NCBI GenBank assembly: GCA_963845185.1
Contig: CAWJRG010000008.1
Span: forward strand, 1 to 46,420
Length of the DNA stretch: 46,420 nucleotides
Reading direction: 5' to 3'
Origin: an uncultured bacterium
Lineage (GTDB): Bacteria > Oederibacteriota > PGYV01 > CAWJRG01
Positions 1-39,826 of the stretch are shown here, in pieces (position 1 is the stretch's first letter; each line of letters opens with the position of its first letter). The notes under the pieces are model-generated. The model had not been told where the DNA came from and ran no database searches. It saw only the letters and a list, made by a program, of their open reading frames with translations. Made by a program: the position numbers and the translations under genes.

Positions 1-1134
1 ACTATGCCAATTTAAAAAAGTATTTCCAATATTAATCAACAAAATAGATTCACTCGCTTTATCTTTTTGAGCTATAACTTCTTTAAGTATCATCTTTTGT
101 AATAAAATTGATCTGCAATATTTTTTCAATCCGTTAAATGCTAACCCTAAATTCATATAATAATTTATTCTACCTTCTTTACTCCCGCTTCTTTTATCAA
201 TTTCATATGCTTTTTTTAAGAATTCAATCGACTCACTGAATTTTTTCATATTTATTAATACTGCAGCTATATTAGAATAACACACTGCTTGCCCTTTATA
301 ATCATCCAAATCTCTATATTCTTTTAATGCTGATTTAAAATTTTCTAATGATTTATCAAAATCCCCAATGTCCCTTAAAATTCCGCCAAGATTTACTATA
401 CACGAAATTTCATTCAATTTATTACCGACAACTTTAAATAAGCGTATTGCTTCAATAATATATTCAATTGCTTTTCTATATTGTCCTAGTGATTGATATG
501 CCAAACTAATATTTTGAAAATTTAATGCACTCCCTTCAACGTCCCCTGTTATAAAGTTTGCAAGTTTTGATTTTTTATAACATATTATTGCTTTTTCGTA
601 TTCTCCCAATTTATTATAAATATTTCCTAAATTTCCAAATGATGATTCAATTCCATTTGCATTCATTATTTCTATATCTAAATTCACTGCCTTTAAAAAG
701 TAATCTTCTGCTTGTTTGTATTCTTCCTTTACTTCATATGCCAACCCCATAAATCCATAACAAGAAGATTCAATAAATTTATCTTTAAGCGATTTATTTA
801 ATTCCAAAGCCAATTTTGTATACTCAAAAATTTTTTCAACATTATTTATTTGTGCATAAGATTCTACTGCACCAAGCAAACAAGAAGCTTGTCCTCTTTC
901 ATCACCGATTTCTTTAAAAATTTTGTAAGCTTCTTCCGATAACAGAGTTGCAGTTTTATGTTTCTTAATGTACTGTAATTTAATTGCGAAACTTAATAAA
1001 TTGGCTGCTTTATTGATTAACGGAAAACTTTCAATCAATTTCATCAATTCTTTTGTTGTTTCTCTGCTATTATTATCATTATATTTATAAATAATTTGAT
1101 CCACAATTGCTATAAATTCTTCTTTATCCGTAAT
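1..1134 (-). pseudogene. 5' half of an interrupted TPR-CHAT protease gene (TPR-repeat region)
   Basis: Stop-free minus frame from ~1134 (ATT after GGAGG; in-frame TTG at 1152 is an alternative start) to the window edge, absent from the ORF track. It encodes repeated TPR motifs (FGNLGNIYNKLGEYEKAI, NISLAYQSLGQYRKAIEY, NLGGILRDIGDFDKSLENF) and ends ...NIGNTFLNWH, which continues in frame at 39823. Confidence 0.85.
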
Positions 1135-1193
1135 AAACCTCCAATAGTTCAATTTAAGAAATTATGTGTCTCATGTTGCGCCACGTCAATTGC

Positions 1194-1424
1194 TTAGCTT
1201 TTACCTTTTTCATTGTTACGTTTTATAATTTTATGAAAGTCAACAATGCAATATATATCAAGCGAAACCGAAACAAGAAACATAACAGCCAGAAAAGAAA
1301 GAATAATAACATGCCAGCCAGCCTTGAGACCAATTAAAAACGCTCCTAAAGTTAATAATACTATTATCGTTGAAACAATAACACCGGTTAAACAGTTAGT
1401 AAAACTTTCGTCTTTATTTGTCAT
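1194..1424 (-). CDS. small two-TM membrane protein
   Basis: 76 aa ORF with two hydrophobic stretches, a basic tail and an AAGGGGA RBS. Confidence 0.6.
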   Translation of the reverse strand: MTNKDESFTNCLTGVIVSTIIVLLTLGAFLIGLKAGWHVIILSFLAVMFLVSVSLDIYCIVDFHKIIKRNNEKGKS

Positions 1425-1626
1425 AAATATCCCCTTTTGGTGTACTCACACCCTGTAAAAATAATTGGGTTATTTGTCAGCCCCGCTCTCACCTTTGTAT
1501 TAACAATTGTACTCTTTGCTCTATTGTTTTGTCAAGCAATAGTTGATTTTGGGCTGCACCCAAGAGACTGGACACATGTGTTAGAATAGACGGAGACCTG
1601 GCCTGATAAGGCAAAGGAGACCATCT

Positions 1627-1986
1627 ATGAAACCAAAGAGAGTTTTTGACAAAGAATTTAGGATACAAGTAGTAGAAGAATTGCTATCCAAGGTAAGTAC
1701 GCCGGCGCAGATAAGCCGGAAATATGGAATATCAGGGGGATTACTCCAGAATTGGAAGCAAAATTATGCCCGTGGCAAATACGGCAATGAACCTGATGAA
1801 GTCGAGGGGCTTAAAGAACATGTCCGGGAGCTTGAACGCAAGCTTGGGCAGATGACTATGGACAATGACTTTTTAAAAAAAGCCTGTCAACACCTTGCAA
1901 AAGCACCAAAGAAAAGAGAGAGTTTATTCGGCGGGCCATATCCGGGCGAAGAAGGCAAGGAGAAGTTAAAAGATGGTGCAAAATGA
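1627..1986 (+). CDS. IS3-family transposase OrfA (HTH)
   Basis: KRVFDKEFRIQVVE..SRKYGIS..LQNW HTH and the ELERKLGQMTMDNDFLKKA zipper. Confidence 0.9.
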   Translation: MKPKRVFDKEFRIQVVEELLSKVSTPAQISRKYGISGGLLQNWKQNYARGKYGNEPDEVEGLKEHVRELERKLGQMTMDNDFLKKACQHLAKAPKKRESLFGGPYPGEEGKEKLKDGAK

Positions 1987-2792
1987 CTGGGTTGAGCCGA
2001 AGCAGTTATTACTACAAACCCAAAGAAAAAAACCAGAAAAAATTAAAGGTGGACTGTGATTTAAGAGATAAAATTGAACGGATAGTTCTTGAGTTTGCAG
2101 GATATGGATATAGGCGGGTTACAAAACAGCTTCACCGTGAAGGTGTGATTGTAAACCACAAAAGAGTACAAAGAATCATGCGTGAAAGCTCGCTTTTGGT
2201 GGTGTACAAACGCAAGTGGGTAAAAACCACAGACTCCAATCACCCGTTCAGGATTTACCCGAATATAGCGAAGGACATGATCCTGACAACGTTAAACCAG
2301 CTCTGGCGTTCAGACATAACATACATCAGAATTTTGCTTGGCTTCGTGTATTTAGCGGTGATACTGGACGCTTTTTCAAGAAAGGTCATAGGCTACAATA
2401 TTTCGCTGTATCTTGATGCCGACCTTGCTATAGGAGCGCTTAAAATGGCCATAGAGAGACGTAAGCCCGGAACAGGCGTAGTCCATCATTCAGACCGCGG
2501 CGTGCAGTATGCCTGCAACGATTACGTTGGCATCTTGAAGGAACACGAATTTACTATCAGCATGTCGCGCAAAGGCAACCCGTACGACAACGCCGGAGCC
2601 GAGAGTTTTATGAAAACAATTAAATGTGAAGAAGTTTATATGTGGGATTATAAAACTATCGATGACGTCTTGAAAAGGATTCCATTTTTTATAGAGGAGG
2701 TGTATAATCAAAAAAGATTGCATTCGGCAATAGGCTACGTTCCACCGGTAGAATTTGAAACTAAACTACAGGAACAGGCCGGTTTGTTCTAA
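1983..2792 (+). CDS. IS3-family transposase OrfB (DDE)
   Basis: YGYRR, WRSDITY, HHSDRGVQY, DNAGAESF and RLHSAIGY motifs. Confidence 0.93.
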   Translation: MTGLSRSSYYYKPKEKNQKKLKVDCDLRDKIERIVLEFAGYGYRRVTKQLHREGVIVNHKRVQRIMRESSLLVVYKRKWVKTTDSNHPFRIYPNIAKDMILTTLNQLWRSDITYIRILLGFVYLAVILDAFSRKVIGYNISLYLDADLAIGALKMAIERRKPGTGVVHHSDRGVQYACNDYVGILKEHEFTISMSRKGNPYDNAGAESFMKTIKCEEVYMWDYKTIDDVLKRIPFFIEEVYNQKRLHSAIGYVPPVEFETKLQEQAGLF

Positions 2793-2936
2793 TCCGAGTG
2801 TCCAAACGAAGGGGTTCATTCCATTTTGATGAGCGAAGTGAGGAAAAACTTACTATTACTTGTCCCCGTTCAAGTCCGAGCTTATGCGAGGACAAGAGGG
2901 ACAAGGTTTATTTATCTCCCAAACTGCTATAAATAT

Positions 2937-3011
2937 AAAATCCCCGGCAGCCTGGCGGCTCTCCGGGGATCCTGTAAGTAAATCATTGAATACCATGTGT
3001 TCCCACACGGC
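2937..3011 (-). ncRNA. candidate ~75-nt small RNA, copy 1
   Basis: Minus-strand TTGAAA-17-TATACT promoter (3046-3018), 5' hairpin GCCGTGTG-GGAA-CACATGGT with a GNRA loop and G-U pairs, and a 3' GC-rich hairpin plus U run. Confidence 0.6.
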
Positions 3012-7844: not shown

Positions 7845-9125
7845 TTATCCTGCGTTCGGGTCATTGACCTTGCCCATGAATAATATCGTGTTTGACGTGT
7901 TTTCCCGTATCATGAATATAAACGGGCTGTTTACGGTAAAGTAATACTGAACCGGTATTATGCCATTACCAGTAACAACTACCCCTGTCGCTGCCGCGGC
8001 TTCTGTGCCATATTCAGCCACAGAAACATATGCCTTGTGAAAAACACCGCTAATATAAAGGTTCCCCAGGCTTGACATGCCTGTAAAATCAGCTTTTACC
8101 GGTGAAAAAGGAGTAGGCATGCCCATTGCCGATAAAGTGTTGACTAGACCGTATGAGGTGTTCACTGTAAATTTTGGGAGTGAAACCGCAACATCGCTTG
8201 TTGAAGTAACTGTCGCGGGCCTTGCCGCCAGCCACGAGTTCATCTTGTCGCCTGTCATGTAATTGTCAAGGCTCGCCATTCCGGCTGCGCCTGCAGGCGG
8301 AAGGAATATAAACATTGATACTTCTTTATCCAGGTAAGGCAGTTCCATGGCAGACGCGACACCGTAATAATTCTCCACGTTTGAGGCCAGAGTCTGGTGC
8401 ATGGTTTGCACCTGCTCTACCTGGCCCGAACTTGTCGTAAAAGCATTGTAGGTGGTGGAATTCACGTCAAACTGGCTCACCCACGTGGCTTCAAAATATA
8501 TTGCGTTGGTCAGGACAAGAGCTGTTGTCGGCCCAATACTTCCGCTTGGCAGTAAATTGGTAATCTTGCCGGCAGTTTCATTTGCGACCGCGGTATTAAT
8601 TGTATTCAGGCACGCGCTTGCGTTATTTACAAAATCCATTGCCGTGGCAGAAGCACTGTAGTATGTCTCCACTGTGTTTAGAAAACTCGGTAAAAACGGA
8701 TAGTTTTGTTCCAGCCAGAGGTTATTGGCTGTACTGAGCATGTAATAATGCTTGTTCGGGTTGTTTATTTCGGTGATTAAACTCGCGAAAGCCTGCCAAC
8801 GCGTGGTATTATCCTGCTGCAAATAAAGCACCTTTGCCATTTCCAATGCTGTCTCTCCTTTCGCGCCTTCATAGGTCATGGAAAGCGCAGTATAAATGCT
8901 GAACGGCGAGAAAAATACATTGTTGTTTGACGAGTTTATCTGGTGGTACAGGGCAAAGGTAAAATCATTGTCTCCCTCGGCTGGCGGCTCCTGCACTATT
9001 GCGGCCTGCACCTGCTGCGGGGTCTGAATAGGCATGATTGCCGCGGGATTGTGAGATTTGCAACTGTTAAAAGCAAGGAATATAAGTGCCGTGGCAAAAA
9101 CCATAAAGGCCTTTTGTTTTTTCAT
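7845..9125 (-). CDS. serpin-family protease inhibitor, probable lipoprotein
   Basis: NVFFSPFSI, LVLTNAIYF, LPKF, hinge EYGTEAAAATG and PFIFMIR..ILFMGKVNDP motifs; signal peptide ending LAFNSC. Confidence 0.93.
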   Translation of the reverse strand: MKKQKAFMVFATALIFLAFNSCKSHNPAAIMPIQTPQQVQAAIVQEPPAEGDNDFTFALYHQINSSNNNVFFSPFSIYTALSMTYEGAKGETALEMAKVLYLQQDNTTRWQAFASLITEINNPNKHYYMLSTANNLWLEQNYPFLPSFLNTVETYYSASATAMDFVNNASACLNTINTAVANETAGKITNLLPSGSIGPTTALVLTNAIYFEATWVSQFDVNSTTYNAFTTSSGQVEQVQTMHQTLASNVENYYGVASAMELPYLDKEVSMFIFLPPAGAAGMASLDNYMTGDKMNSWLAARPATVTSTSDVAVSLPKFTVNTSYGLVNTLSAMGMPTPFSPVKADFTGMSSLGNLYISGVFHKAYVSVAEYGTEAAAATGVVVTGNGIIPVQYYFTVNSPFIFMIRENTSNTILFMGKVNDPNAG

Positions 9126-10217: not shown

Positions 10218-11033
10218 TTAAATTTTTTTTAGTTTTTTATCATATAAGTCTTTTACCAGCTTTAAGCCCCCTTGTTCCCTCTTGTAAACATAAATTGCGT
10301 ACCTTTCAAGGTTTTCTTTTGAAAGCCGGTTAAAATATACCTGCGCCTTTATCCAGGACGGGACCACAAAATATATCCTCGCGTAGCCTTTATATTCGTT
10401 CTTGTAATCATAAATCCAGTCCTTTATTGTTTTGGTATTTTTCGCGCCTGTCTGGTATTCGACAAGGTTTACCCCTGCGCCGTCCACAAATATAAAGTCC
10501 GGAATCCTGTACCCGCGCCTTATCCTGTGTATGAAACTGTCATTTAACTTTTTGCCTTCCGATTTTGCCTTTTCTTCGGCTTTTACAATCGTGGTATTGA
10601 CTTCCTTTACCCGCTCGCGCCTTAAAATGTAGTCCGTCTTATATTCAATAATGCCCTTGTGATATTTTAAAAACCATATAAGTATGTCTATGACCGCAAT
10701 ATCGTGGGCCAGTTCCCTGAAATTAATGTTGTAATCCGCTGCGTCAATGCCCTTTTCCTTTAAAAAGTTAATTCCCTGCCCTGTGAGCCGGTATATTTTT
10801 TCCCTTAATAGCCCTGTCTGGAAATAATAGCCCTTTAAATAGCGTTCAGCCGGCACAAATATCCCGTTTTTCTTTATTGTCTTCCCTTTCTCAAGCATTT
10901 GGACATACTTTTTGGCGTTGTCATAGCTTCCGGAAAAAAACATTTCGGCTATTTGCTGGATTTGGATTATTTTTACCCGGTATATGAAGGCTAATATGTT
11001 TATTTTGCGCGTCAACTTCTCATTCTTTGTCAT
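10218..11033 (-). CDS. replication-relaxation family protein (wHTH + PD-(D/E)XK-like)
   Basis: Likely start MTKNEK at 11033 overlapping the virD4 stop; YRLTGQG, ELAHDIAV and IPDFIF..VEYQTG motifs; adjacent to the coupling protein. Confidence 0.7.
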   Translation of the reverse strand: MTKNEKLTRKINILAFIYRVKIIQIQQIAEMFFSGSYDNAKKYVQMLEKGKTIKKNGIFVPAERYLKGYYFQTGLLREKIYRLTGQGINFLKEKGIDAADYNINFRELAHDIAVIDILIWFLKYHKGIIEYKTDYILRRERVKEVNTTIVKAEEKAKSEGKKLNDSFIHRIRRGYRIPDFIFVDGAGVNLVEYQTGAKNTKTIKDWIYDYKNEYKGYARIYFVVPSWIKAQVYFNRLSKENLERYAIYVYKREQGGLKLVKDLYDKKLKKI

Positions 11034-12972
11034 CTTTATCCTTTTCTTCGTCGTCGTCTTTGTCTTTTTCTTTGTCCTTTTCTTTTTCTTCATCCTGTTT
11101 GCTGACGGCCTCATTTAATGTGTCCGGAGCGTTCTTGATTAGATCGTGAATCCCGCCTTTCTTCGGCGTTTTGTTTTTCGGCGGCTTTTTCATGAACGAA
11201 TCATTATCCTGGCTATCAATGGCTTCTGCCGCGGGCGGCACGTCTTTAACTTCCCTGCTTTCGATTAAATCCTGCTCCGGCTCCGCCTTTATTCTTGGCG
11301 GCCTGAAATATATTTTATACTGTGAAAGGTCTTTTAAAGGATAAAGTTTTACCCTGCTGATAAATCTGCCTTCGTCTGCCTCAATTTTCACTATGCCCTC
11401 GCCGTATTTTAAAAATTTATAATCATTCGGGTGCGTAATGAATTCCTCTTCAATCTTTTCCGTAAATCCTGATTGCGCTACCCCGTCTTTGGTCGAAAAA
11501 CTGTTTACGCGCCTTTTTATCGTCCTTGTTCCCATGGCCTTGGCGAAATATTCCGCCGTTCCCGGGTCCTCAATGTTTAAAATTATTTTGTTCCGCGCGT
11601 TTGTCAGAATCTGGTTTTGCAGTGCTTTTCCGCATACCTCCAAATCGCCTAACGCCTGGTGTCCAAATATTATCCCCACTTTTGCCTCGCGCGCCTTGTT
11701 TATAAGCTCGGAAAATTCCTTGTATACGATTTTATCGAATTCATCCAGGTAAACGAAAAACGGTTTAAGCTCTTCATGCTGTATCGAGTAGCGTTTTCCA
11801 ATCTCGCTTTGTATGTGCATCATCATGAGTATCGACAATGGCTTGTAGTCCGACTGGTACCTGGCTGAATTGGACTGAAACAATAATATTTTGTTTTTAC
11901 TTATTATTTCAGCAACGTCGATTTCAGGCTTTGTCGTGTTTATCTGTTTTGTCCATTCCGGAATTGCGAACTTGGAAATTTTGTTTAAAAGCCCGGACAG
12001 GTCCTTTTTGACTTTTTCCATTTTTTCTTTAAGAAAATCAAGAATGTATTTCGCGTTTAAGTCGCCTTCATATTCCTCGCACACGGGCTTTAAATATCCC
12101 CACGGGTCGGATATGGCCTTGTATAAATTGACAAAGGTTATTGTTTTTATTTTTTTAAGAAGTATCGCTATTGTCGCGGATAAAAACAGGCCTCCTATGT
12201 CCTTATAGTATTGTTCCGAATTTGTCATGTCATAATATAAGGCCGCGAAAATCCTGTTTGTTATTTCAGTGGCGTCCGTGCCCGAAAGCGGGTTGTAAGT
12301 CAGGCTGTCTTCCCCGCCGAGATTAAAATAATAAAATTCAAGTTCGCGCTGCGATGCAGCTACGAATTGCTCGACTTTTTCCCGCATGTTGCTTTTGATG
12401 TCGAAGATAAAAAGCCCCGCGCCTTTGTCTATGTCCTGGTAGATGTGAGGGTAAAAAACAAGCCGCGTCTTGCCTGAGCCGGTCGAGCCGATTACCTGCA
12501 GGTGCGTATACCTCGCGCGTTCCGGAATGAACACTTCGTGGGTTACCTGCACGTAGTACTTCCCGTAATTGGTTATGTTTTGTTTGTCCAGAGTATGGTC
12601 CAGTAATGTTTCTTTATCGCTTTGCGGCGTCATTTTCGCGGTAAGGACAGAATATATTTCAAACCCTGCGACCCCTAGAAAAATCAGAAGGTGCGGAGTA
12701 TGGGATTTCAACAGAAGTGATATACCCCAGTCAAAAAGGTCAAATAAAAAATATGCGGCGACGAATAATCCTATGCGCGTTTTTTCTTTCCTTATCCCGT
12801 AATAGCCTATATAAAAAAAAGTCAGGGCAAAAACAATCCACCCAATAAGCGTATGCTCGTAATCGAAAAGGTAATCCGCCAAATAAATCACGCCCAGGCT
12901 TGCGATGGCAATTGTGTCAATTAATAATAAATTCTCCTTTTTTGTGTCTGCTGGTGCGACTGAATACATCAT
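11020..12972 (-). CDS. virD4: type IV coupling protein (VirD4/TraD-like)
   Basis: N-terminal TM helices, Walker A GSTGSGKT, IFDIK, YNPL, Walker B VYLDEF, AREAKVGIIFGHQALGDL and a charged tail. Confidence 0.88.
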   Translation of the reverse strand: MMYSVAPADTKKENLLLIDTIAIASLGVIYLADYLFDYEHTLIGWIVFALTFFYIGYYGIRKEKTRIGLFVAAYFLFDLFDWGISLLLKSHTPHLLIFLGVAGFEIYSVLTAKMTPQSDKETLLDHTLDKQNITNYGKYYVQVTHEVFIPERARYTHLQVIGSTGSGKTRLVFYPHIYQDIDKGAGLFIFDIKSNMREKVEQFVAASQRELEFYYFNLGGEDSLTYNPLSGTDATEITNRIFAALYYDMTNSEQYYKDIGGLFLSATIAILLKKIKTITFVNLYKAISDPWGYLKPVCEEYEGDLNAKYILDFLKEKMEKVKKDLSGLLNKISKFAIPEWTKQINTTKPEIDVAEIISKNKILLFQSNSARYQSDYKPLSILMMMHIQSEIGKRYSIQHEELKPFFVYLDEFDKIVYKEFSELINKAREAKVGIIFGHQALGDLEVCGKALQNQILTNARNKIILNIEDPGTAEYFAKAMGTRTIKRRVNSFSTKDGVAQSGFTEKIEEEFITHPNDYKFLKYGEGIVKIEADEGRFISRVKLYPLKDLSQYKIYFRPPRIKAEPEQDLIESREVKDVPPAAEAIDSQDNDSFMKKPPKNKTPKKGGIHDLIKNAPDTLNEAVSKQDEEKEKDKEKDKDDDEEKDKDDKE

Positions 12973-13796
12973 GCCTTTTTTATCCTTTCAATCGCGTCTT
13001 CAAGCCTTTTAATCACGCCTGACTTTTCGCTTAGTTTTCCGTATATCACTATTTTAATGATATTCTTTTCCCTGTTTAATATGATATCCCCGTCTTTTAA
13101 CATCTTTTTCTTCGCGGCTTTGCGCTCTTCGACCGGCTTCGAGAAAATATTATAAAGCTGCCTGATTCTTTTCTTCTGTTCTTTTTCCGGCAGGTTTAAC
13201 GTCCGTATTCCCTCTTTGAATGTCATTCCCATTTCAATTAATTTTTTTAAATCCTCATCCCCGCCTACGTTCAAATAATTTCTTACGCTCCTGTAGGAAA
13301 GGTCAAGGCGTTTTGCGATTTCAGCGGGCTTTAAATTCTGTTCGGTTTCAAGTTTTTTGATGTGCTTGTATACGTCCTCGAATTCCATTTCCATTCTTTG
13401 CAGGTTCTCGATTTCTGCGATGATGAACGCGTCCTCATCGCTTACGTCATTGCATATGGCTTTTATTTCCCTGCCTGATTCCTTCAATGCCCTGTATCTT
13501 GTAAAACCCGCTATGAGCTGGTACTTGCCGTCTTTCGGCCTGATAAATACAGGGACCTGCTGGCCGTGCTTTTTTATGCTTTCCTTTAGATTTTCAAAAT
13601 CTTCCCTGCTCACTTCTTTTGAACGGATTTGAAATGTGTAATCTTCAAGTATCTCTGACGGTTTGACTATGATAAATTCGCCGCCTTTTTCGAAAGCAGC
13701 CCTTACTTTTTTCTTTGCGTATACGTCCGTGTGTTTTTCAAACTGTTTTTTGGCTTTATCGCCGATCTTTCCCAGGTATTTGTTTATTTTCGGCAT
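12969..13796 (-). CDS. parB: ParB-like partition protein, copy 2
   Basis: LKESIKKHGQQVPVFIR..YQLIAGFTRYRA, ENLQR and HTH AEIAKRLDLSYRSV. Confidence 0.88.
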   Translation of the reverse strand: MPKINKYLGKIGDKAKKQFEKHTDVYAKKKVRAAFEKGGEFIIVKPSEILEDYTFQIRSKEVSREDFENLKESIKKHGQQVPVFIRPKDGKYQLIAGFTRYRALKESGREIKAICNDVSDEDAFIIAEIENLQRMEMEFEDVYKHIKKLETEQNLKPAEIAKRLDLSYRSVRNYLNVGGDEDLKKLIEMGMTFKEGIRTLNLPEKEQKKRIRQLYNIFSKPVEERKAAKKKMLKDGDIILNREKNIIKIVIYGKLSEKSGVIKRLEDAIERIKKA

Positions 13797-16433: not shown

Positions 16434-16612
16434 TTATTTGCTCCTTTTTTTAAGTTTAGTTTTTTTGTTTCAAGAAAAACGTTTTCCAGGGCGAATTCTA
16501 TTATCTGCGCCATGGAGCGGTTTTCTTTTTCCGCTTCCTGCTTTATTCTTTCATAAAGCTCATTTGGAATACGGGTTGATATGCTTACTTTCTGCCCGCT
16601 TTCGCTCTGCAT
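16430..16612 (-). CDS. Arc/CopG-like RHH protein
   Basis: ISTRIPNELYERIKQEAEKENRSMAQIIEFAL; 4-bp overlap with parA; AAGGAG RBS. Confidence 0.8.
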   Translation of the reverse strand: MQSESGQKVSISTRIPNELYERIKQEAEKENRSMAQIIEFALENVFLETKKLNLKKGANK

Positions 16613-17265: not shown

Positions 17266-17273
17266 AAGCAGTT

Positions 17274-19722: not shown

Positions 19723-19744
19723 TTTGTCACTATCCTTTGTTTAA

Positions 19745-23890: not shown

Positions 23891-23905
23891 GAGGAGGGCA
23901 TTTTT

Positions 23906-24925: not shown

Positions 24926-24937
24926 AGGAGGTTTTCT

Positions 24938-27420: not shown

Positions 27421-27421
27421 A

Positions 27422-28288
27422 ATGTCTGAATCAATCAAAAACCGCTATGAGTTTGTCGTGCTTTATGACGTGGAAAACGGGAACCCTAACGGCGACCCGG
27501 ATGCCGGAAATATGCCGAGGATAGATTATGAGACAGGATATGGCATTGTCACGGATGTTTGCATTAAAAGAAAGGTAAGGAACTATGTGGAGATAACAAA
27601 GGAAGGCAAAAAGGGTTTTGATATTTATGTAAAAGACGGCTCAATCCTGAACAACACCAACAAAAAAGCTTACGAAGCGCTGAAACTCGAGCCGGAAGAA
27701 AAGAAGCTGCCCAAAGACGAAGACGACGCGAAAAAGGTAACGGATTTTATGTGCAAGAATTTCTACGACATCAGGGCTTTTGGCGCGGTAATGACCACAA
27801 AAGTAAACTGCGGTCAGGTAAGAGGGCCGGTCCAGTTCAGCTTTTCCAAAAGTATTGACCCGATAGTCCAGCAGGAAGTTTCCATCACAAGAATAGCAGT
27901 TACAGATGAAGGTGATAAGGCAGCGGAGACAGGGCATACTATGGGTAAAAAGTTCATTGTTCCTTACGGCCTATACAGGATGGAAGGATATATATCGCCT
28001 TTCTTCGGGAAACAAACAGGCTTCAACGAGGAAGACAAAGACCTGCTTTTTGAGGCGCTGAAAAATATGTTTGAGCATGACCGCTCCGCGGCGCGCGGCA
28101 AAATGGCAGTGCGTAAGCTATGGGTGTTCAAACATGACTCCGAACTTGGTAACGCCCAGGCGAATAAGTTGTTTGAGACGATAACCATAAAACGCAAAGA
28201 TGAAAGCAAGCCTGCGCGGGCGTTTGAGGATTACGAAATAAAGACAACGGCTGCGCCGGGCGGGGTTAATGTGGAGGAATTGATTTAA
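27422..28288 (+). CDS. cas7: type I-C Cas7 (Csd2)
   Basis: NPNGDPDAGNMPR, DIRAFGAV, GQVRGPVQ and FEHDRSAARG motifs; start at 27422 after GGAGG. Confidence 0.96.
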   Translation: MSESIKNRYEFVVLYDVENGNPNGDPDAGNMPRIDYETGYGIVTDVCIKRKVRNYVEITKEGKKGFDIYVKDGSILNNTNKKAYEALKLEPEEKKLPKDEDDAKKVTDFMCKNFYDIRAFGAVMTTKVNCGQVRGPVQFSFSKSIDPIVQQEVSITRIAVTDEGDKAAETGHTMGKKFIVPYGLYRMEGYISPFFGKQTGFNEEDKDLLFEALKNMFEHDRSAARGKMAVRKLWVFKHDSELGNAQANKLFETITIKRKDESKPARAFEDYEIKTTAAPGGVNVEELI

Positions 28289-28312
28289 ACAAAGAGGAAA
28301 AGAGGCGGGAAT

Positions 28313-29128
28313 ATGAAAAAGGAAAGGCAAATTGTCGTAAGCGGTACGGCGGTGACAATACTGCAGGTCAATGGGCAGGATTACATATCGTTGACGGATA
28401 TGATAAAAGCAAAAGACGGGGATTTTTTCATATCCGACTGGCTGAGGAACAGGAACACTGTCGAGTTCCTGGGCATCTGGGAGAGCGTCAACAACCCCGG
28501 TTTTAATTATGGCGAATTCGCCGTAATTAGGAGCCAGGCCGGATTGAACCGTTATAAAATCAGCGCGAAAGAGTGGATTGAGAAAACCGGCGCGATAGGC
28601 CTTAAAGCCTCGGCAGGAAGGTATGGCGGGACTTACGCGCACAAGGATATAGCTTTTGAATTCGGCATGTGGATAAGCCCGGAATTTAAAATTTACCTGA
28701 TCAGGGAATTCCAGCGCTTAAAAGACGAGGAAAATAAACGCCTGAAGCTCGGATGGAGCCTGCAGCGGGAACTCGCGAAGATAAATTATAAGATACATAC
28801 CGACGCCATAAAGGAAAGGTTGATGCCTGCGGTTGTTGGAAAAAGGCATTGCTCGCTCATATACGCGGATGAGGCGGATTTGCTGAATGTGGCGCTTTTT
28901 GGAATGACGGCAGGGGAATGGCGCGGAAAAAATCCCGGGAAAGAAGGCAATATCAGGGATTTCGCCGCGCTGGAGCAGCTTGTTGTTTTGAGCAACCTTG
29001 AAAGCATAAATTCCATGCTGATAAGGCAGGGTTTGCCGCAGAATGAAAGGCTAATGAAACTGAACGAAATGGCGATAATGCAGATGAAATCTTTGCTTAA
29101 AAACGACAATATAAAGAAGCTGAAGTGA
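28313..29128 (+). CDS. KilA-N domain protein
   Basis: DYISLTD, WLRNRNTVEFLGIWE and GRYGGTYAHKDIAFEF motifs. Confidence 0.88.
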   Translation: MKKERQIVVSGTAVTILQVNGQDYISLTDMIKAKDGDFFISDWLRNRNTVEFLGIWESVNNPGFNYGEFAVIRSQAGLNRYKISAKEWIEKTGAIGLKASAGRYGGTYAHKDIAFEFGMWISPEFKIYLIREFQRLKDEENKRLKLGWSLQRELAKINYKIHTDAIKERLMPAVVGKRHCSLIYADEADLLNVALFGMTAGEWRGKNPGKEGNIRDFAALEQLVVLSNLESINSMLIRQGLPQNERLMKLNEMAIMQMKSLLKNDNIKKLK

Positions 29129-29808
29129 GCAAAATGCCGTTTGACGAAGATGATTTACTGGCCCTGTCGGGGCTACAGCACTATTTTTACTGCAAACGGC
29201 AATGGGCGCTGATACACGTGGAGGAACAGTGGGTTGAAAACGCGCTGACTGCCGAGGGCAGGCTGCTGCATGACAGGGTTGACAACAGTAAAAACATTGA
29301 ATACAGGGAAGGCGCGATAATAGAGCGCTCTGTCGCGCTAAAGTCGGCGGAACTCGGCATATACGGCGTGGCTGATGTGGTCGAATTTTTCAGGAGCGAA
29401 GCAGGCGTGAAGCTGGCTAATGAAGAGGGCCTGTGGCAGCCGAGGCCCGTCGAATATAAACGCGGCAAGCCTAAAGCCGGGATATGCGACAGGGCGCAGC
29501 TTTGCGGACAGGCCATGTGCATAGAGGAGTTGTACGGAGTAAAGATAGAAAGCGGAGACCTGTTTTACTGGCAGACAAGGCACAGGGCGCCGGTCGTTTT
29601 TGACACGGATTTAAGGCAGGCAGTGCGCTGCGCGGCTGAGGATATGCATAATATGATTAAAAACGGCATTACGCCCGGGGTTCCGGACAACGTGAAATGC
29701 AAAAATTGTTCGCTGGTTTCCGTTTGTGTGCCGAAGGTTCAGAAAAAGAAACACGGCAGGGTTGATAAATATATAAATGAAAATATACACGGCGGTGATA
29801 ATGCGTAA
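29125..29808 (+). CDS. cas4: Cas4
   Basis: LQHYFYCKRQWALI, GVADVVEF, PVEYKRG and terminal C..CSL...C. Confidence 0.95.
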   Translation: MSKMPFDEDDLLALSGLQHYFYCKRQWALIHVEEQWVENALTAEGRLLHDRVDNSKNIEYREGAIIERSVALKSAELGIYGVADVVEFFRSEAGVKLANEEGLWQPRPVEYKRGKPKAGICDRAQLCGQAMCIEELYGVKIESGDLFYWQTRHRAPVVFDTDLRQAVRCAAEDMHNMIKNGITPGVPDNVKCKNCSLVSVCVPKVQKKKHGRVDKYINENIHGGDNA

Positions 29809-30832
29809 ACTATTGAATGTGCTGTATGTCACGACACCGGAGGCTTACCTGTCCCGGGACGGCGAGAATATCGTGATAAAAGTGGATGACGAGGAAAAAT
29901 TCCGTGTGCCGTGCCACAACCTGGAGGGAATAGTGTATTTCGGGCACAGGGGCGCGAGCCAGGCAGTGCTCGGCATGTGCGCGGAACGCGGGATTTGCTT
30001 CACGTTCCTGACGCCGCAGGGCAGGTTCCTGGCGCGGGTGGAGGGCCCGGTTTCGGGCAATGTGCTTCTGCGGAAAAAGCAGTACAAAATAAGCGATGAT
30101 AAAACAGAAAGCGCGAAAATAGCAAAACTGTTTGTAATGTCGAAGATTTCAAACGCGAGGGCTGTCTTATCGCGCGTAATACGCGACCATCCGGATAATA
30201 CTGACACGGCAAAAATCAAAAAAGCCATGGATGACATGTCGCTAATGATTTTTAAAGCCGAGAAAAACAACGACCTTGAGGAAATACGCGGGATAGAGGG
30301 AATGTCGGCGCACCTGTACTTTTCGGTTTTTAACGAGCTTATTGTGGCGCAGAAAGACGGGTTTTATTTTACCGAGCGCAGCCGCAGGCCGCCGAAGGAC
30401 AACATAAACGCCCTGCTTTCTTTTGTTTATACCCTGCTCGTGCATGAGTGCCGCTCTGCGCTCGAAACAGTGGGGCTTGACCCTGCTGTGGGATTTTTGC
30501 ACAGGGACAGGCCGGGCAGGCCGAGCCTCGCGCTGGATTTGATGGAGGAACTAAGGCCGTATATAGCGGACAGGGTGGCGCTGTCCCTGATAAACAGGCA
30601 GCAGGTTACGCCGGATTCTTTTACGGCAAGCGAGGCGGGAGGGATATACATGAAAGACGGGGCGAGAAAGACATTGCTTGAAACGTGGCAAAAAAGAAAA
30701 GCCGAGGAAATAACGCACCCATTTCTTGACGAAAAAATCGAAGTGGGATTGATTCCTTATTCGCAGGCTTTGCTGCTCGCGAGGTATATGCGGGGCGATA
30801 TTGAAAGTTATCCGCCGTTTTTTTGTGGATAG
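29801..30832 (+). CDS. cas1: Cas1 (I-C)
   Basis: MRKLLNVLYV, RGIEG, NALLSFVY and GFLHRDRPGRPSLALDLMEE motifs. Confidence 0.96.
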   Translation: MRKLLNVLYVTTPEAYLSRDGENIVIKVDDEEKFRVPCHNLEGIVYFGHRGASQAVLGMCAERGICFTFLTPQGRFLARVEGPVSGNVLLRKKQYKISDDKTESAKIAKLFVMSKISNARAVLSRVIRDHPDNTDTAKIKKAMDDMSLMIFKAEKNNDLEEIRGIEGMSAHLYFSVFNELIVAQKDGFYFTERSRRPPKDNINALLSFVYTLLVHECRSALETVGLDPAVGFLHRDRPGRPSLALDLMEELRPYIADRVALSLINRQQVTPDSFTASEAGGIYMKDGARKTLLETWQKRKAEEITHPFLDEKIEVGLIPYSQALLLARYMRGDIESYPPFFCG

Positions 30833-30837
30833 CACCG

Positions 30838-30875
30838 CTTGTCCCGAACAAGTTCGGGACTTGAGCGGGGACAAG
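30838..30875. repeat. REP-like nested palindrome between cas1 and cas2
   Basis: CTTGTCCCGAACAAGTTCGGGACTTGAGCGGGGACAAG; related copies in opposite orientation at 2859-2905 and, weaker, 9458-9496. Confidence 0.55.
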
Positions 30876-31007
30876 ACTCCGTAAGATTTTGCCGGGTAGT
30901 TTTTAACATGATAACTTATGGATGCTACCCGTTAAATAATCCACAGGATTATTTAACTGTATGTTGACGCTTGGCAAAAACAACGGACTCTAAGGAGGTC
31001 TTATAAT

Positions 31008-31298
31008 ATGATGGTGTTGATTACTTACGATGTCAATACGGAATCCGAAGGCGGGAGCAAGCGGCTGAGAAAGATAGCGAAGGAATGCAAAAATTACGGG
31101 CAGAGAGTACAAAACTCGGTGTTTGAATGCCTTATAGAACCCGACAGGTTTGTCAATTTGAGAAGCGCGCTTGAAAAAATAATGGATAAGGATAAGGACA
31201 GCATAAGGTATTATTTTCTCGGCAGGAACTGGCACAGGCGGGTCGAGCATACTGGCGCGAAAAAAACTTATGACCCGGAAGGGCCGATGGTGATTTAA
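31008..31298 (+). CDS. cas2: Cas2
   Basis: LITYDV..RLRKIAKECKNYGQRVQNSVFEC..DSIRYY. Confidence 0.96.
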   Translation: MMVLITYDVNTESEGGSKRLRKIAKECKNYGQRVQNSVFECLIEPDRFVNLRSALEKIMDKDKDSIRYYFLGRNWHRRVEHTGAKKTYDPEGPMVI

Positions 31299-31483
31299 TT
31301 TTTTTTAGTTGGGCAAATGCGAATGTATTGTTGTTGGCTTGTTGCTTATGGTTCGCAACCAATAGAATTAAATGGTTTTATGATTTTGTGAATTATTACG
31401 TTAAGTTATGAAATACGTTCGCATTGAGTTTCGCAAAAAGTGCTATTAATATAATAAATAAATAAGGAGGATAATTAGAAAGA
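31299..31483 (+). promoter_or_regulatory. CRISPR leader
   Basis: AT-rich stretch with TGCGAA / TTCGCA motifs typical of I-C leaders. Confidence 0.7.
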
Positions 31484-33010
<1,527 letters not shown>

Positions 33011-33921: not shown

Positions 33922-34307
33922 AATTAATTTTAACGCAGCTGTGGCCAGATTGTCAAGAGTTCGTATAAAGTTAAAAGGGAGTAAAATGTAAATTGCAGTG
34001 ATTGTGTAAATTTGCAGTGGTAATGCTATGTATTATTTAATTGACATATGTAAACTAAAATGAACATTGAAAAAGGAATAAGACTGATATAGAAATTTTG
34101 TTTAATGTTACATATAAAATTACCTTACAATATGTAATACTCCATAGTTTGTATGGTAACTATTCTTTGACTACAATTTGTAGTCGAGGCTTATCAGGGG
34201 TCTTTGTTTGTATAAAATTAACGGCAATTTAACGGCAATTTGTCGGAAATTTTGATTGACAAGTTTAAAGGGGTATATTAATATATTTAAAGGAGGTTTT
34301 GATATTT

Positions 34308-35411
34308 ATGACTATTAAATGGAATCCAAAATATAATATTACGACTAAAATGGCTCGTTGCCTCATGGATATTGAGGCTATCAAAAAGGTTATGGACAAT
34401 ATTTCTGTACCTCCGGCTGCTGCCGCAGAGTTAAAATATAATGCTATGATCAGGGCCACTCACTATTCAACCAGAATTGAAGGAAACAAACTTACCTTAA
34501 AGGAAACTGAGCAAGTAATTAAAAAAAATAAAATCGTTTTTTACGGCAGGGAAAGGGATGTTAAAGAAGTTCAAAATTACTGGAACGCATTGATTGCGGT
34601 TCAAAAATGGGCCGAAAGCAAAGCTGAATTTTCAGAAGATATTGTTAAAAAGACACACGGCATAGTTGTTAATGGTAAAAAAGGTGTATCAACGCCGTAT
34701 AGAGAAGGACAGAATGTTATTAAAGACTCTAAAACAGGATGGATAGTATATATGCCACCAGAAGCTAAAGATGTTTCTGCGCTTATGGAAGGCATGGAAA
34801 GGTGGGTTCGTAAGGCTGAAAAGGAAGGAATTCCAGCGCCAATTATTGCGGCCCTGGTACATTACCAATTTGTTACTATACATCCATATTATGACGGGAA
34901 TGGCAGGACAGCCAGGCTGTTGGCCACTTTTATCCTTCAAAAGAGCGGATATGGATTAAATGGATTTTTCTCTATGGAAGAATATCATGCTGCTAATCTT
35001 CCAAAATATTATAAAGCCCTCGTTGTGCATAAACATCATAATTATTATGAAGGCAGGGCAGATGCAGACCTAACATCATGGATAGAATATTTCATATTAT
35101 TACTTGCTGAAGTTTTTAGGAATGTCCAAAAAGAAACGCTTAATTTTATTAAAAAAGGGGTCAAGGCTGAACCAGAAGCCCTAAGAAAACTTGATATAAG
35201 GGGAAGAAATGTATTAGGATTGTTTTTAAAAAAAGATGCTATTACAACTGCCGATATTGCGGCTTTGCTTGGTTTATCGCAGCGAATGGCAAGAAATTTG
35301 GCTGAGAAATGGGTAAAGCAAGGAGTTTTGCTGGTTGCGGAAAAATCAAAAAAATCCCGGGCGTATAGATTAACGGCAATATATCGGCAATTTGTCGGAA
35401 ATAAGAATTAG
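34308..35411 (+). CDS. Fic-family protein with C-terminal wHTH
   Basis: STRIEGN and HPYYDGNGRTARL motifs; C-terminal ITTADIAALLGLSQRMAR. Confidence 0.92.
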   Translation: MTIKWNPKYNITTKMARCLMDIEAIKKVMDNISVPPAAAAELKYNAMIRATHYSTRIEGNKLTLKETEQVIKKNKIVFYGRERDVKEVQNYWNALIAVQKWAESKAEFSEDIVKKTHGIVVNGKKGVSTPYREGQNVIKDSKTGWIVYMPPEAKDVSALMEGMERWVRKAEKEGIPAPIIAALVHYQFVTIHPYYDGNGRTARLLATFILQKSGYGLNGFFSMEEYHAANLPKYYKALVVHKHHNYYEGRADADLTSWIEYFILLLAEVFRNVQKETLNFIKKGVKAEPEALRKLDIRGRNVLGLFLKKDAITTADIAALLGLSQRMARNLAEKWVKQGVLLVAEKSKKSRAYRLTAIYRQFVGNKN

Positions 35412-35492: not shown

Positions 35493-36214
35493 TTATTCAA
35501 TAATTTGACTTGGTTTTGCGATTAGAAATGATTGTGGAATTTTATATGAATTGAGTGAATATGGTATATCTTTAGCATTATCACAAAAATAATTATGATA
35601 ATTAGCTACCCAAAAATATTTATTCCATATTTTAGGGTTAGATTCATACATAATCAATTTAAGTTGAGTAATGTCCCTGTGTCTTTCTATAAATTCAAAA
35701 TTTGTTTTTGATGACTCTTCAATAATAGTTAAATAATTTATAAAATATTTTTTATCTGTTCTTCTTCAATGCTTACGACATTTAATAAAACTTCACCTAA
35801 TATAGTTTGGTCACCAATATATAAATTACCAATATCAATTGCGCCCCTTACAAAAAGCCCCTCTGCCACAAGATTAAATTGTATTGCTGCAACAACATTA
35901 CTTATAGTTAAAAAAAACTCATCAGTAGGGTCTGCAAACTGAACAGGATAACCTATAATTATATTATCGCTAAATATTTTATATTTAAATTGCTTAATGA
36001 CCTCATCCTTACTAACTGATTTAAAATCATCAAGAAGTATACTACAATTATTCATTGCCTTAATTATTTTATTTAAAATAAGTTCTTCTTCACTATGCTT
36101 AATTGCGGTATTATATTCTTCTTTAAAACCTAAAATATCCATATAAATGCAATATGAACCTAAAAATGTAGGCTTGCCCTCTTTTTCATATGGATTATCA
36201 ATAATTTTTGTCAA
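35493..36214 (-). pseudogene. nucleotidyl-cyclase-like protein, frameshifted or internally deleted
   Basis: YMDILGFK, FSDNII and FVRGAIDIGNL in the first frame; the C-terminal part (YFINYL..KYFWVANYHNYFC) continues in another frame from ~35755 to a stop at 35493. Confidence 0.6.
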
Positions 36215-36633
36215 AAATGTAGCTCCTTATTTATTTTCCAAATATTTCTTCCTCGCCGGATGATTGATCTTCTTAAAGCCTTTTTTATCAGTTGACGGAT
36301 GCGCTCGCGGGATAAGCCGAGAGCTTGACCAATTTCTTCCATTGTGTGGGCTTTGCATCCTATACCGTAACGCATTTTCATTATATTTGCGTCTCTTTGA
36401 GATAAGTCTGGAAGAACTGCAAAAAGTCTAGCCCGGGTAGCTTCGTCCAATTCAACTTTTTGAGGCCCGTTAAGCCGTATTTTTGGCGGTGGACCGCCTA
36501 TTATACCTATTATTCCTCTGCAGTTGGGGTAATTGGTACATCCAAAAAAGTAACCGCCCTTGTTTATACCTCTTGTGGCCCGCTTCTTGATCATAGGCGA
36601 GCCGCATTTAGGACAAGGTTTGGGTGTAAACAT
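36211..36633 (-). CDS. topoisomerase-type C4 zinc ribbon fused to a sigma70 region-4 HTH
   Basis: CPKCGSPM..FFGCTNYPNC, then LSQRDANIMKMRYGI..TMEEIGQALGLSRERIRQL..KALRR. Confidence 0.8.
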   Translation of the reverse strand: MFTPKPCPKCGSPMIKKRATRGINKGGYFFGCTNYPNCRGIIGIIGGPPPKIRLNGPQKVELDEATRARLFAVLPDLSQRDANIMKMRYGIGCKAHTMEEIGQALGLSRERIRQLIKKALRRSIIRRGRNIWKINKELHF

Positions 36634-36843: not shown

Positions 36844-36921
36844 ATAATTACTCCTTATTAATTCATATCCTGTTTACTTACTTCTTCATTTTTACAATGC
36901 CTTGTAAGTCAAATTCAAGGC

Positions 36922-37653
36922 TTATCGAGACTCTTGTTTCTCTGGCTTTTCAAGTATTTCCTTTATTTTATTAGTAATGCTTATCTTTTGTTTCATTGGT
37001 TCTGCTTCTTTTAAAACAGCTAAACCAATATTTGCTCTCCTATCTATATCTTCATAAGTAGGTTGTACAATATCAATGAAAATGATTCCTACTGTCGGTT
37101 CAAGATGATTGTCAATAATAATCTGATAAATTTTAGTGTGTAACCCTTCTTTTGCTGTTTTAAATATATTCGTAGATTTCTTCTCTTTACTATCTATTTG
37201 TGTTATTACAATAAAGTATGCTCTAAAAAATCCGATTTTGCTTGCAGAACAAGCTTGCTTTATCCCGTATATAATACCCTGAAATTTATTGTAAATTTCA
37301 TAATCCTTTGAGTCAATTCTAACTTTTATTCTTTTAACTTCACATAAAACTATTTTTTCATACCATGAATCACACCAAAATATAATATCAAAATCCCCTG
37401 GTTTACTACTAAATGTATTTTTTACTTCAGTCTTATAGTTCGCATTTTCATTTGATGTTAGAGCATGAAGTAATAAATTTCTGACACCTAAATTTTTCAT
37501 AAGCCAATTTATTGTTTGACTCTCGCTCATATCAATTAGCAGATTTACATCTTTTTGTTCTTTATCCACGAAAAGTGGATAGTTAGCTGCCTTAATTGGA
37601 CCTTTTGATAATTCTATAGAATCATAAAGAACATACCGCCACTGTATATGCAT
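36922..37653 (-). CDS. PD-(D/E)XK nuclease-like protein
   Basis: PGDFDII..LCEVKR and GIKQA pattern. Confidence 0.55.
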   Translation of the reverse strand: MHIQWRYVLYDSIELSKGPIKAANYPLFVDKEQKDVNLLIDMSESQTINWLMKNLGVRNLLLHALTSNENANYKTEVKNTFSSKPGDFDIIFWCDSWYEKIVLCEVKRIKVRIDSKDYEIYNKFQGIIYGIKQACSASKIGFFRAYFIVITQIDSKEKKSTNIFKTAKEGLHTKIYQIIIDNHLEPTVGIIFIDIVQPTYEDIDRRANIGLAVLKEAEPMKQKISITNKIKEILEKPEKQESR

Positions 37654-37700
37654 TTAATATATGTCGTTGGCCATAACTTTTTCACCATCTTTATAAAAAT

Positions 37701-38009
37701 TTAGAAAACATTTCCCCGTCCTTCCTTAGTTAATCTAAAAGCACTACTGCTTAAAGTTGATTTTCCAATATCATGCATTATATAGCCCTTTCTAATAAGA
37801 TAATCAAAATCTTCAAGCAATTGGTCATATTCATCTTCAGTTAATTTTGGTGCTCTCTCAATTGTAGCACCGAGCTTTGTTTCGGTTTTACCTTTAAGAT
37901 TCACGGCTATTTGATTAACAAGGTCAATTCCACTAAAACTTTGTTTTCCATCCGTAATTAAATCCTGAATCGCAGATCGAATTTCTTCTCTTATACTGTC
38001 TCCTTTCAT
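37701..38009 (-). CDS. small winged-helix-like protein
   Basis: Likely start MKGDSIREE at 38009 after AAGGAGG; FDYLIRKGYI..FRLTKEG wing motif. Confidence 0.55.
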   Translation of the reverse strand: MKGDSIREEIRSAIQDLITDGKQSFSGIDLVNQIAVNLKGKTETKLGATIERAPKLTEDEYDQLLEDFDYLIRKGYIMHDIGKSTLSSSAFRLTKEGRGNVF

Positions 38010-38248
38010 TTCATTATCCTCCTTAATTAATTTTTTGTTTTCATTCTCCAACAGGGCGTTCAAAAAATCAAACCCAATTTCATTTTTCCAAACATTTCTT
38101 CCTAGCCGGATTTTGCTTTGGATTATGTAATCCCTCGACTCTGCGGAATGATAAAAAATACAGAGAACAGCAGGAGTACGGCTCCGAGCTTGCCTGCTTC
38201 GGCAAACGGTCTTAAAGAATGTTTGAACTGTCAAGTATTTTCTCTAAA

Positions 38249-39826
38249 TTACTTTCCTATTAGCATAAATGGAGCCCAATAAAAAGGCGCTTCATAACCC
38301 TTTGTGTTTTTCAATTCCTTATAAGCATTTTGCACAGCTGCAACTTTATTAAATCCTTTACGAAGATTCTTGTAAAATAGTAACATAAATTTTTCCGTCG
38401 AATCACTATATACTGACCATGCTGAAACTAATAAAGATGATGTGCCAGCATATTGAAATGCACGAGTTAAGCCAATAATTTCATCTCCAGGTTTCCAAAA
38501 ATTTAAACCTGTTTGACAGGCACTTAATACTACTAAGCTTGAATTAATTTTAAGATTAAAAATTTCTTTAGCTGTTAACATTCCATCATAAAGTTTAAGT
38601 CCCGATTGCAAAGGGTCTTGCCAGTTAAAAGCACCATGACAAGCAAAATGAATAATATCTTTATTGCTAATATTTTCAAGTACCGTTTGTTTAGTTGCGT
38701 CAGTAAAGTGTTGTTCGTCCGTAAATATGGTTGAAATTTTATGAGTTTCATTATCAAAACCATTACTAAAGCTTACTATACTATTTATGGATTGTTTTTT
38801 ATTAAGATATTTCATTATTGAAGCAGAAGACAAATATACTATCGGGTTAGAATCAATAATTTGTTTATCCTTAAGTGATAAAGCCTGAAGAGGAAAGTAA
38901 TGAATAACTCCAAAGGGTATAAAAAAAATAATATCATCAGATTTTAATAAATCAGCAATAGGCTCAATTAAATATCTGCCAAAGTCTAACCATTCTGTAT
39001 TATGCGTTTTTTTATCAACAATCTCTTTTTCTTCACCCTTTTCTAAGTCTTGAACATAGGAATTAATATATTCAAAATAATTTTTAGTATAATGTATTAT
39101 TTTCTCTTCATTAATAGATATATTTTTAACAGTAATTTTCTTTTCAACAGGTCTAATAAAAAAAATAATTATTTGATCACCTGTATAAAAATATTCTACA
39201 ATTACATTGTTTTGTGTTTGAAAATGCATGCAAATTTCTTCAAAAGAAAGAGTTTTACCCTTCCTTTGCGCAACATATTCCGCGTCATAAGATTCCATTT
39301 CCTTGTAAATATCCTCTAATTCTTTTAATATTTTATCAATCTCTTCTGATTTTTCATTATCTGTCTTATTCTTGATATAATTCGTTTGTGCTCTTCTTAT
39401 AATAGATAATAAGGAATTTTCTTTAGCTAGTAATTCTTGAAATCTTGAATTAGTTGAATTTTTTGGGCTAATATCCGAATTTGCCATTATTTCTAAAAAG
39501 GCTCTTGATTTACATTTCTCTAAATATTCATATGCTTCAATATTTTTATCTAATTTAAGACAAATTAAAATCATATAACTGTAAATTTCGACACTTTTTA
39601 TTGAAAAAAAACTTTTAAATTCTTCGTTAATCAAATTTATACTTGTTTTTTCAACAAGATTTACTGCTTCTTTGCAATAATTGTAAGCGATTTCAGGATG
39701 ATTTAAACGCTCAAAATATATTCTCGCCAATGAAATGTTGGCGGTTTTCTGTGAATCATAATTACTAATAGAATTCGCAACTTCTAATGCTTCCTTAAGG
39801 TACTTAACACCCTCTTCATTTCTATG
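38249..39826 (-). pseudogene. 3' half of the TPR-CHAT caspase-like protease gene, cut by the IS21 element
   Basis: Catalytic IIHFACHG and VVLSACQTG, plus APFYWAPF; the frame stays open up to the IS end with no start or RBS. Confidence 0.9.

Follow-up and report, generated by a model that had tools for sequence, protein, structure and literature searches.

An IS21-family element with a predicted nickel/cobalt-uptake operon splits a TPR-CHAT gene on a probable plasmid of an uncultured Oederibacteriota bacterium

Insertion sequences (IS) of the IS21 family leave target duplications that span 4-8 bp and take part in cointegrate formation, as with the tandem IS21 of R68.45. Here we describe a 6,740-bp element of this family that carries a predicted nickel/cobalt-uptake operon, together with the TPR-CHAT (caspase-like) protease gene that it splits, on contig CAWJRG010000008.1 (C8) of an uncultured bacterium of the phylum Oederibacteriota. 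The genome assembly (GCA_963845185.1) consists of 11 contigs with 3.50 Mb in total and is 99.4% complete. The whole of C8, 46,420 bp, is the window analysed here, and positions given without a contig name refer to it.

Passages of PMC10122671 and PMC11208146 describe the transposition of IS21-family elements as a reaction in which IstA tetramers synapse the multi-repeat ends, IstB readies the target and a 5-bp stagger leads to the duplication. For IS5376, a member of the family, 5-bp target repeats and multi-repeat ends are given in a part of PMC10122671, in which the IstA complex is also likened to Tn7 and Mu. A passage of PMC9330008 states that IS21 often forms tandems that drive rearrangements. 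The element of C8 agrees with IS21 and IS5376 in its overlapping istA-istB genes, TG...CA ends, several IstA-type sites and 5-bp repeats at two of the three copies found in this genome. In contrast to them it measures 6,740 bp instead of about 2.0-2.7 kb and contains, downstream of istB, six cargo genes, and it thereby exceeds the insertion-sequence format (transposition genes alone, about 2-2.7 kb). Transporter IS (tIS) are IS derivatives whose inverted repeats enclose passenger genes. The present element resembles them in that its cargo is enclosed by the terminal repeats and transposes jointly with istA and istB, in three copies with an own target repeat each, whereas it belongs to the IS21 family and its cargo is a metal-uptake operon with a regulator and contains no resistance gene. 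A DDE transposase paired with an AAA+ regulator and accompanied by cargo is likewise a property of Tn7, Tn5053, Tn552 and Mu; unlike in these systems, genes for a target selector, a resolvase or a TnsA-like protein were not seen here, and the transposase scores as IS21 rather than as TnsB or TniA. Replicon fusion of the R68.45 type resembles the present case, in which an IS21-family element connects the plasmid either to its own other end or to the chromosome, but the assembly contains no tandem junction, and the matching 5-bp repeats on both sides speak for a simple insertion.

Three copies of the element are present in the genome. The copy on C5 (496018-502757) is complete with 6,740 bp. A second copy extends from C6 142562 to the end of that contig and is continued at C1 331421-334805, where it stands reversed at the contig end; C6 and C1 join through one element copy because TTTAC flanks both ends. 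The third copy is that of C8 (39827-46420), where the contig stops 146 nucleotides (nt) short of the right end of the element, so that 145 nt are absent if base 1 is counted. The left boundary is identical at C5 496018, C6 142562 and C8 39827, and the right boundary is identical on C5 and C1. Each copy is flanked by its own duplication, namely CTGC/CTGC on C5, TTTAC/TTTAC on C6 and C1, and CTATG/CTATG on C8. Boundaries and the whole interior are shared by the three copies with at least 99.9% identity outside error-rich contig ends, and a BLAST search of 39800-46420 against the genome gave 4 differences in 6,594 nt between the copies of C8 and C5. The cargo unit evidently moves as one, and to judge from these copies IstA and IstB would in nature be able to move 4 kb of cargo or more.

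The termini of the element are TG...CA, with TGCAAAATTCGG... at the left and ...CCGAAATTTGCA at the right. The complete C5 copy finishes ...TTGGTCCTTTTGACCGAAATTTGCA, and the right ends on C5 and C1 both finish ...TTTGGTCCTCATGAAACGAAAACCTTGGTCCTTTTGACCGAAATTTGCA, containing inverted TGGTCC...CCGAA repeats and a final CA. At the left end the four sites start at 39834, 39857, 39880 and 39903, as compared with 2-3 repeated IstA-type sites at the right end. The genes istA and istB overlap by 4 nt, and the right end lies 4,224 nt past the istB stop codon. No vestigial inner right end was found after istB: a motif scan of the window returned 0 matches, and the 75-nt right end aligned to 42300-42460 scored 16 (shuffle mean 14.6, maximum 22).

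All eight genes of the element are open in the copies of C8 and C5 (coordinates and family scores in Table 1). From its family matches, cbiM-PDGLE-cbiQ-cbiO (43691-46392) is predicted to encode a nickel/cobalt uptake transporter of the energy-coupling-factor (ECF) type. The hydrophobic N-terminus of the 229-residue product encoded upstream of cbiM suggests a putative outer-membrane protein. The four differences between C8 and C5 (positions 43158, 43166, 46109 and 46199) are all located in cargo genes and all change an amino acid, Q/H and V/G in the 229-residue protein and R/Q and F/S in CbiO, while the transposition genes are identical. Two of the substitutions, both in the 229-residue protein, are plasmid-specific. 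At E <=1e-30 the sole CbiM matches of the genome are the three element copies, and the dosage of nickel/cobalt-uptake genes (three copies) would here be set by transposition. A genome of the same order (G017) contains cbiM-PDGLE-cbiQ-cbiO with 66-76% amino-acid identity and no istA/istB in the 16 kb around it, and in two more genomes of the phylum the operon is found at 49-72% identity. By these comparisons the cargo operon appears to resemble the lineage's own.

Relatives of the IstA protein are distant. Identities elsewhere reach at most 52%, with <=52% in a collection of genome contigs (15 loci), <=48-49% on metagenome contigs (21 loci), <=48% in PLSDB plasmids and <=49-51% across the phylum's 98 other genomes; the closest named relative is a transposase of the ISIde2 family (46%). 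No cargo was seen in 16 loci with IstA relatives, of which a crude terminal-repeat search found the termini in only 7. In these seven the elements measure 2.56-2.75 kb, and the right end or its repeats follow 65-270 nt after istB. In the literature searched there was no paper on an IS21-family element with passenger genes; curated IS databases (ISfinder, TnCentral entries) lay outside this search. It is with some reserve, and with slightly more doubt than confidence, that we propose the element as the first transporter IS of the IS21 family: a 6.7-kb IstA/IstB unit with a NikR-controlled nickel/cobalt ECF operon that resembles the lineage's own and provides the genome's sole copies. This unit would currently be active, would have moved between chromosome and CRISPR-bearing plasmid and would have knocked out the TPR-CHAT protease of the plasmid. 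An IS21-family element that moves a metal-uptake operon with its regulator would extend the concept of 'IS with passengers' past the two families named in TnCentral. The three-copy, cargo-carrying element is the less ordinary part of the present results, and the plasmid circle discussed below belongs to ordinary genome finishing.

The window begins with A followed by CTATG (positions 1-6), and CTATG is found again at 39822-39826, directly before TGCAAAATTCGG, which starts at 39827. On the minus strand the reading frame from 1152 to 1 runs off base 1 as ...NIGNTFLNWHS, and the frame that is entered at 39826 begins HRNEEGVKYLKEALEVA and continues for 525 residues to the stop at 38249. Pfam detects TPR families in the first fragment (TPR_12, 3.9e-31) and CHAT (PF12770) in the second (1.1e-43, 150 bits). 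If the two are read jointly with a single copy of CTATG, a frame of 907 codons with zero internal stops results. At two given places, 5 matching nt are expected by chance in about 1 of 1000 cases, and here joining the fragments also brings back the frame and the register of the repeats; the agreement of base 1 with the last base of the element concerns a single nucleotide and would occur by chance in 1 of 4 cases. A first-pass annotation, made from the window alone, had already proposed that one TPR-CHAT gene is split over both ends of the contig, that CTATG precedes the TG terminus and that joining restores the frame and a TPR repeat in a protein of about 900 residues. All of this is borne out by the 907-codon frame, which lies in register with homologues. 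The annotation had also expected base 1 to be the last base of a right end in ...CA with inverted TGGTCC...CCGAA repeats, exactly as now seen on C5 and C1, where the ends finish TTTGCA, and its IS21-type short duplication has been found as 4-5 bp at all three copies.

A search with the CHAT half gave 923 proteins with E <=0.001, the closest being 35-43% identical (best outside homologue 40-43%). Many of them are full-length proteins of 810-919 residues with TPR and CHAT regions, and their CHAT half is 35-41% identical to the present one. When the fragments were aligned to 6 full-length homologues in MAFFT, exactly 5 empty columns separated them, which correspond to the join-spanning residues N-W-H-R-N, and the 25-residue stretch over the join is as long as in these proteins. 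Global alignments of the rejoined protein, the comparison that the annotation had asked for, are gap-free within +-30 residues of the join for six of eight homologues; in the remaining pair the gaps measure 5 and 40 residues. Two unrelated fragments, in which the TPR frame at base 1 would belong to another gene continuing leftward and CTATG would match by chance, are hardly conceivable. For such a coincidence one could argue that TPR arrays are repetitive, that many TPR proteins lack CHAT and that the fragments abut exactly in just 6 of 23 BLASTP extrapolations to homologues of at least 800 residues. The remaining 17 are offset by about 40 (10 cases), 80 (3), 86 (3) or 114 (1) residues, i.e. 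by roughly one to three TPR-pair units, as is expected from a register slip of the local alignment or from fewer repeats in the homologues. Against a coincidence there also stand the 5-nt repeat at the exact element boundary with base 1 as the element's last base, the restored frame, the conserved length of the join stretch, and the single-copy state of both the CHAT region and the initial 1,500 nt in this genome. The TPR fragment and the CHAT fragment are thus confirmed as two halves of one gene, far beyond chance.

The motifs HFACHG and LSACQTG are intact and align with conserved columns of the homologues; we take their His and Cys to be the catalytic dyad. The insertion cuts the TPR array off from the CHAT domain and thereby probably inactivates the protease. 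BLAST of the genome's contigs found no second or intact TPR-CHAT allele elsewhere in the genome, and in 40 relatives nothing exceeded 32% identity, so there is no empty site to compare. With both halves of the gene still open and 3-4 substitutions between the element copies, the insertion is presumably recent. Csx29 of type III-E systems likewise combines an N-terminal TPR array with a C-terminal CHAT domain and has its place beside gRAMP/Cas7-11, but the CRISPR locus near the present gene is of type I-C, 5 kb away and on the opposite strand. An identification as Csx29 was rejected, with an NCBIfam score of 59.6 bits vs a cut-off of 300 and cas genes of type I-C on the contig. PADLOC matched neither the CHAT half nor the two open reading frames that lie downstream (ORFs; 37701-38234 and 36922-37653).

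In view of the split gene we consider it probable that C8 is a circularly permuted replicon, namely a free circle of 46,565 bp. The target was presumably a 39,820-bp circle when it was hit, because the segment ends at one and the same insertion site on either side. Three left ends but only two right ends of the element were counted in the assembly, and the missing third right end would fit the gap from 46420 to base 1, since the only left-linked copy without a partner is that of C8, and no unpaired right flank other than the start of C8 has a matching repeat. In this free, non-integrated molecule the 145 missing nt would join 46420 to base 1. The proposal of a transposon that wraps round to base 1 fits these data, with the extent now given as 39827-46420 plus 145 unassembled nt plus base 1. 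Two further proposals of the annotation hold in part. The segment 2-39826 has the genes of a plasmid, yet it includes both copies of the duplication, which puts the plasmid at 39,820 bp prior to the insertion; the assignment to IS21 is right for the family, as IstA and IstB pass their cut-offs, but not for a plain 2.5-kb IS21, in view of the 6,740 bp, the 4.2-kb cargo operon and the three copies. The annotation had left the choice between circle and cointegrate undecided, and both states are retained here since they share the four junctions; the split gene and the repeat call for either a circle or a segment with an element copy on each side.

In a cointegrate, the plasmid would be integrated at the C6/C1 site in the order C6 - element - window 2-39826 - element - C1, either by homologous recombination between the plasmid and chromosomal copies or by an IS21-type replicon fusion. 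We regard this arrangement as unlikely, in spite of the fact that all four of its junctions are as in the free state, that the steps from C6 to C1 and from the end to the start of C8 are two unbridged copies whereas the C5 copy is bridged, and that IS21, according to a passage of PMC9330008, often forms tandems that drive rearrangements. It would require the C8 copy to equal the C1 copy, but element position 6373 is T in the C8 copy and C in the C1-linked copy. Between the C8 copy and the C6-linked copy there are further differences at positions 2354, 3332 and 3340, of which 3332 and 3340 carry alleles private to C8. The differences at 6373, 3332 and 3340 argue for a C8 copy distinct from the C6/C1 copy. 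Moreover, an unbridged element repeat needs no special cause because contigs of this assembly break at 1.5-kb IS copies elsewhere too, and the segment possesses its own RepA, iterons and two partition systems. The following points weigh against the free circle. The step from 46420 to base 1 is not spanned by any contig, and the assembly lacks the 145 nt; in a cointegrate the sequences at all four junctions would be identical to those of the circle. The single-nucleotide difference at 6373 lies 221 nt from the end of C8 and could be an end error, and the last ~500 nt of C6 and the first ~635 nt of C1 are rich in error-like indels and substitutions, which weakens the argument from these differences against a cointegrate. 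The repeat of the C5 copy has 4 bp and not 5 bp. The cumulative GC-skew minimum is found near the iterons, but the switch in skew coincides with a switch in gene orientation and is weak evidence for an origin. The relaxase-like match reaches 23.4 bits, under the Pfam cut-off of 25.3, and no mating-pair genes were seen on C8.

More complex states, i.e. a mixture of free circles and cointegrates, a head-to-tail multimer or tandem array, or a C8 that is partly misassembled at the repeat, appear quite improbable. They would agree with the two element copies (of three) that are unresolved in the assembly, with the error-like variation at contig ends and with the redundancy that is apparent from the overlap of C2 and C5. 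Nothing in the assembly requires them, however: a search of the genome assembly for a tandem junction between a right end and a left end of the element found none, and the CHAT/element junction is internal to C8, away from any contig break. As a separate observation on the assembly, the end of C2 and the start of C5 overlap by 3 kb with 95-98.5% identity and indels; the assembly is redundant and error-rich at some contig ends (the C2/C5 overlap and the ends of C6 and C1).

For the free circle the following course of events is proposed. An ancestral 39,820-bp iteron/RepA plasmid would have carried two ParAB pairs, a type I-C CRISPR-Cas system and the gene of a coupling protein, together with a TPR-CHAT protease gene that was still intact at about 907 codons. 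The 6,740-bp element may have entered a TPR repeat of this gene by ordinary IstA/IstB transposition, the chemistry being taken from the family, and a staggered cut would have duplicated CTATG and left the gene as two open, undecayed halves. The assembler would then have opened the circle inside the three-copy repeat, such that the contig begins with the last base of the element and breaks off with 146 nt of it still to come; once closed, the molecule would measure 46,565 bp. In this way the split gene would turn an unplaced 46-kb contig of metagenome type into a defined replicon of 46,565 bp.

Table 1. Positions of the annotated features in the 46,420-bp window
Feature	Position	Strand	Evidence or remark
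A at base 1	1	+	taken as final base of the element right end (...TTTGCA); TTTGCA on C5 and C1
CTATG, right-hand copy of the target duplication	2-6	none	
N-terminal (TPR) part of the split TPR-CHAT gene	7-1152	-	382 codons, TTG at 1152; true start codon uncertain
IS3-family element	1549-2824	+	100% identical copies on C5, C9 and C10
Replic_Relax ORF, sub-threshold	10218-11114	-	
Type IV coupling protein	11020-12972	-	
ParA/ParB pair 2	13798-14613, 12969-13796	-	
ParA/ParB pair 1	15621-16433, 14804-15619	-	
CopG-like ribbon-helix-helix (RHH) protein	16430-16612	-	
Replication module	16944-18374	-	repA 17274-18374 (Pfam RPA 38 bits, cut-off 27)
1.7-kb IS	19731-21435	+	DDE_Tnp_1_4 transposase in two overlapping ORFs (19850-20701, 20628-21014); four 99.6-99.9% copies on C9 and C10
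Type I-C CRISPR-Cas with array	21677-32994	+	cas3, PLD-like gene, cas5, cas8c, cas7, KilA-N gene, cas4, cas1, cas2
C-terminal part of the split TPR-CHAT gene	38249-39826	-	last TPR, linker and CHAT domain; 525 codons and stop
CTATG, left-hand copy of the target duplication	39822-39826	none	
IS21-family cargo element	39827-46420	+	first 6,594 of 6,740 nt; 99.9% identical to C5 496018-502611
Left terminal repeat region	39827-39920	+	TG terminus and four 18-nt TTCGG-N-AGGACCA sites, 23-nt spacing
istA, IS21-family DDE transposase	40022-41605	+	NCBIfam transpos_IS21 (NF033546) 253.2 bits, cut-off 160; Pfam rve, Mu-transpos_C_2
istB, AAA+ helper ATPase	41602-42342	+	NCBIfam IS21_help_AAA (NF038214) 242.3 bits, cut-off 200; Pfam IstB_IS21 3.5e-68
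nikR, nickel-responsive repressor (cargo)	42446-42868	+	NCBIfam NF003381 171.8 bits, cut-off 105
Gene for a 229-residue protein (cargo)	42985-43674	+	zero family matches; 34% identical to the cbiM neighbour in relative G051
cbiM (cargo)	43691-44377	+	355.6 bits, cut-off 225
PDGLE-domain gene (cargo)	44374-44712	+	
cbiQ (cargo)	44714-45565	+	135 bits, cut-off 111.8
cbiO, ECF-type ATPase (cargo)	45565-46392	+	

The remainder of the contig contains the plasmid backbone listed in Table 1. At least six iterons, GCAYGYCARGTATCAATA, are located at 16944-17267 directly beside repA, and relatives of RepA with 24-28% identity occur on 21 PLSDB plasmids with annotated TrfA/RepA. Further plasmid genes encode RadC, a DUF6908 protein, a serpin, a tyrosine recombinase and a Fic protein. 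The GC content is 0.397 in the 39.8-kb remainder, 0.416 in the element and 0.424 in the other contigs. Since three distinct mobile elements of C8 recur on chromosomal contigs at 99.6-100% identity, C8 is assigned to the same host, and on this sequence evidence we take it to belong to the same cell line as the chromosome. Such a tie between replicon and host by three shared mobile elements is rarely possible for plasmids of uncultured phyla.

The type I-C cas operon is complete. The CRISPR array (31484-32994) consists of 23 identical repeats, and the repeat is found nowhere else in the genome. A comparison of the 22 spacers with the genome for self-targeting gave matches of <=18 nt only. The PLD-like (DrmC-like) gene of the cas locus is placed between cas3 and cas5 (23906-24925), and the KilA-N gene, which matches the PADLOC candidate PDC-S22 with 1.6e-129, is placed between cas7 and cas4 (28313-29128).

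Repeats of about 65-170 nt are distributed over the plasmid (30830-31005, 21332-21436, 9630-9748, 9272-9412, 6472-6550 and 38114-38212). They show 75-91% identity with many sites on chromosomal contigs, and one of them lies directly 5' of cas2. A 109-nt direct repeat is present inside the plasmid at 2937-3045 and 9763-9871 (97% identity). The serpin gene (7845-9125, Pfam 5e-108) has two tandem chromosomal paralogues on C9 (7129-9800) with 76-77% nucleotide identity. Between the recombinase and the CHAT gene are located the genes of the Fic protein (34299-35411), with a PADLOC SoFic match of 1e-51, and of a small protein with a zinc ribbon and sigma-70 region 4 that resembles the C-terminus of MzaA (36211-36633).

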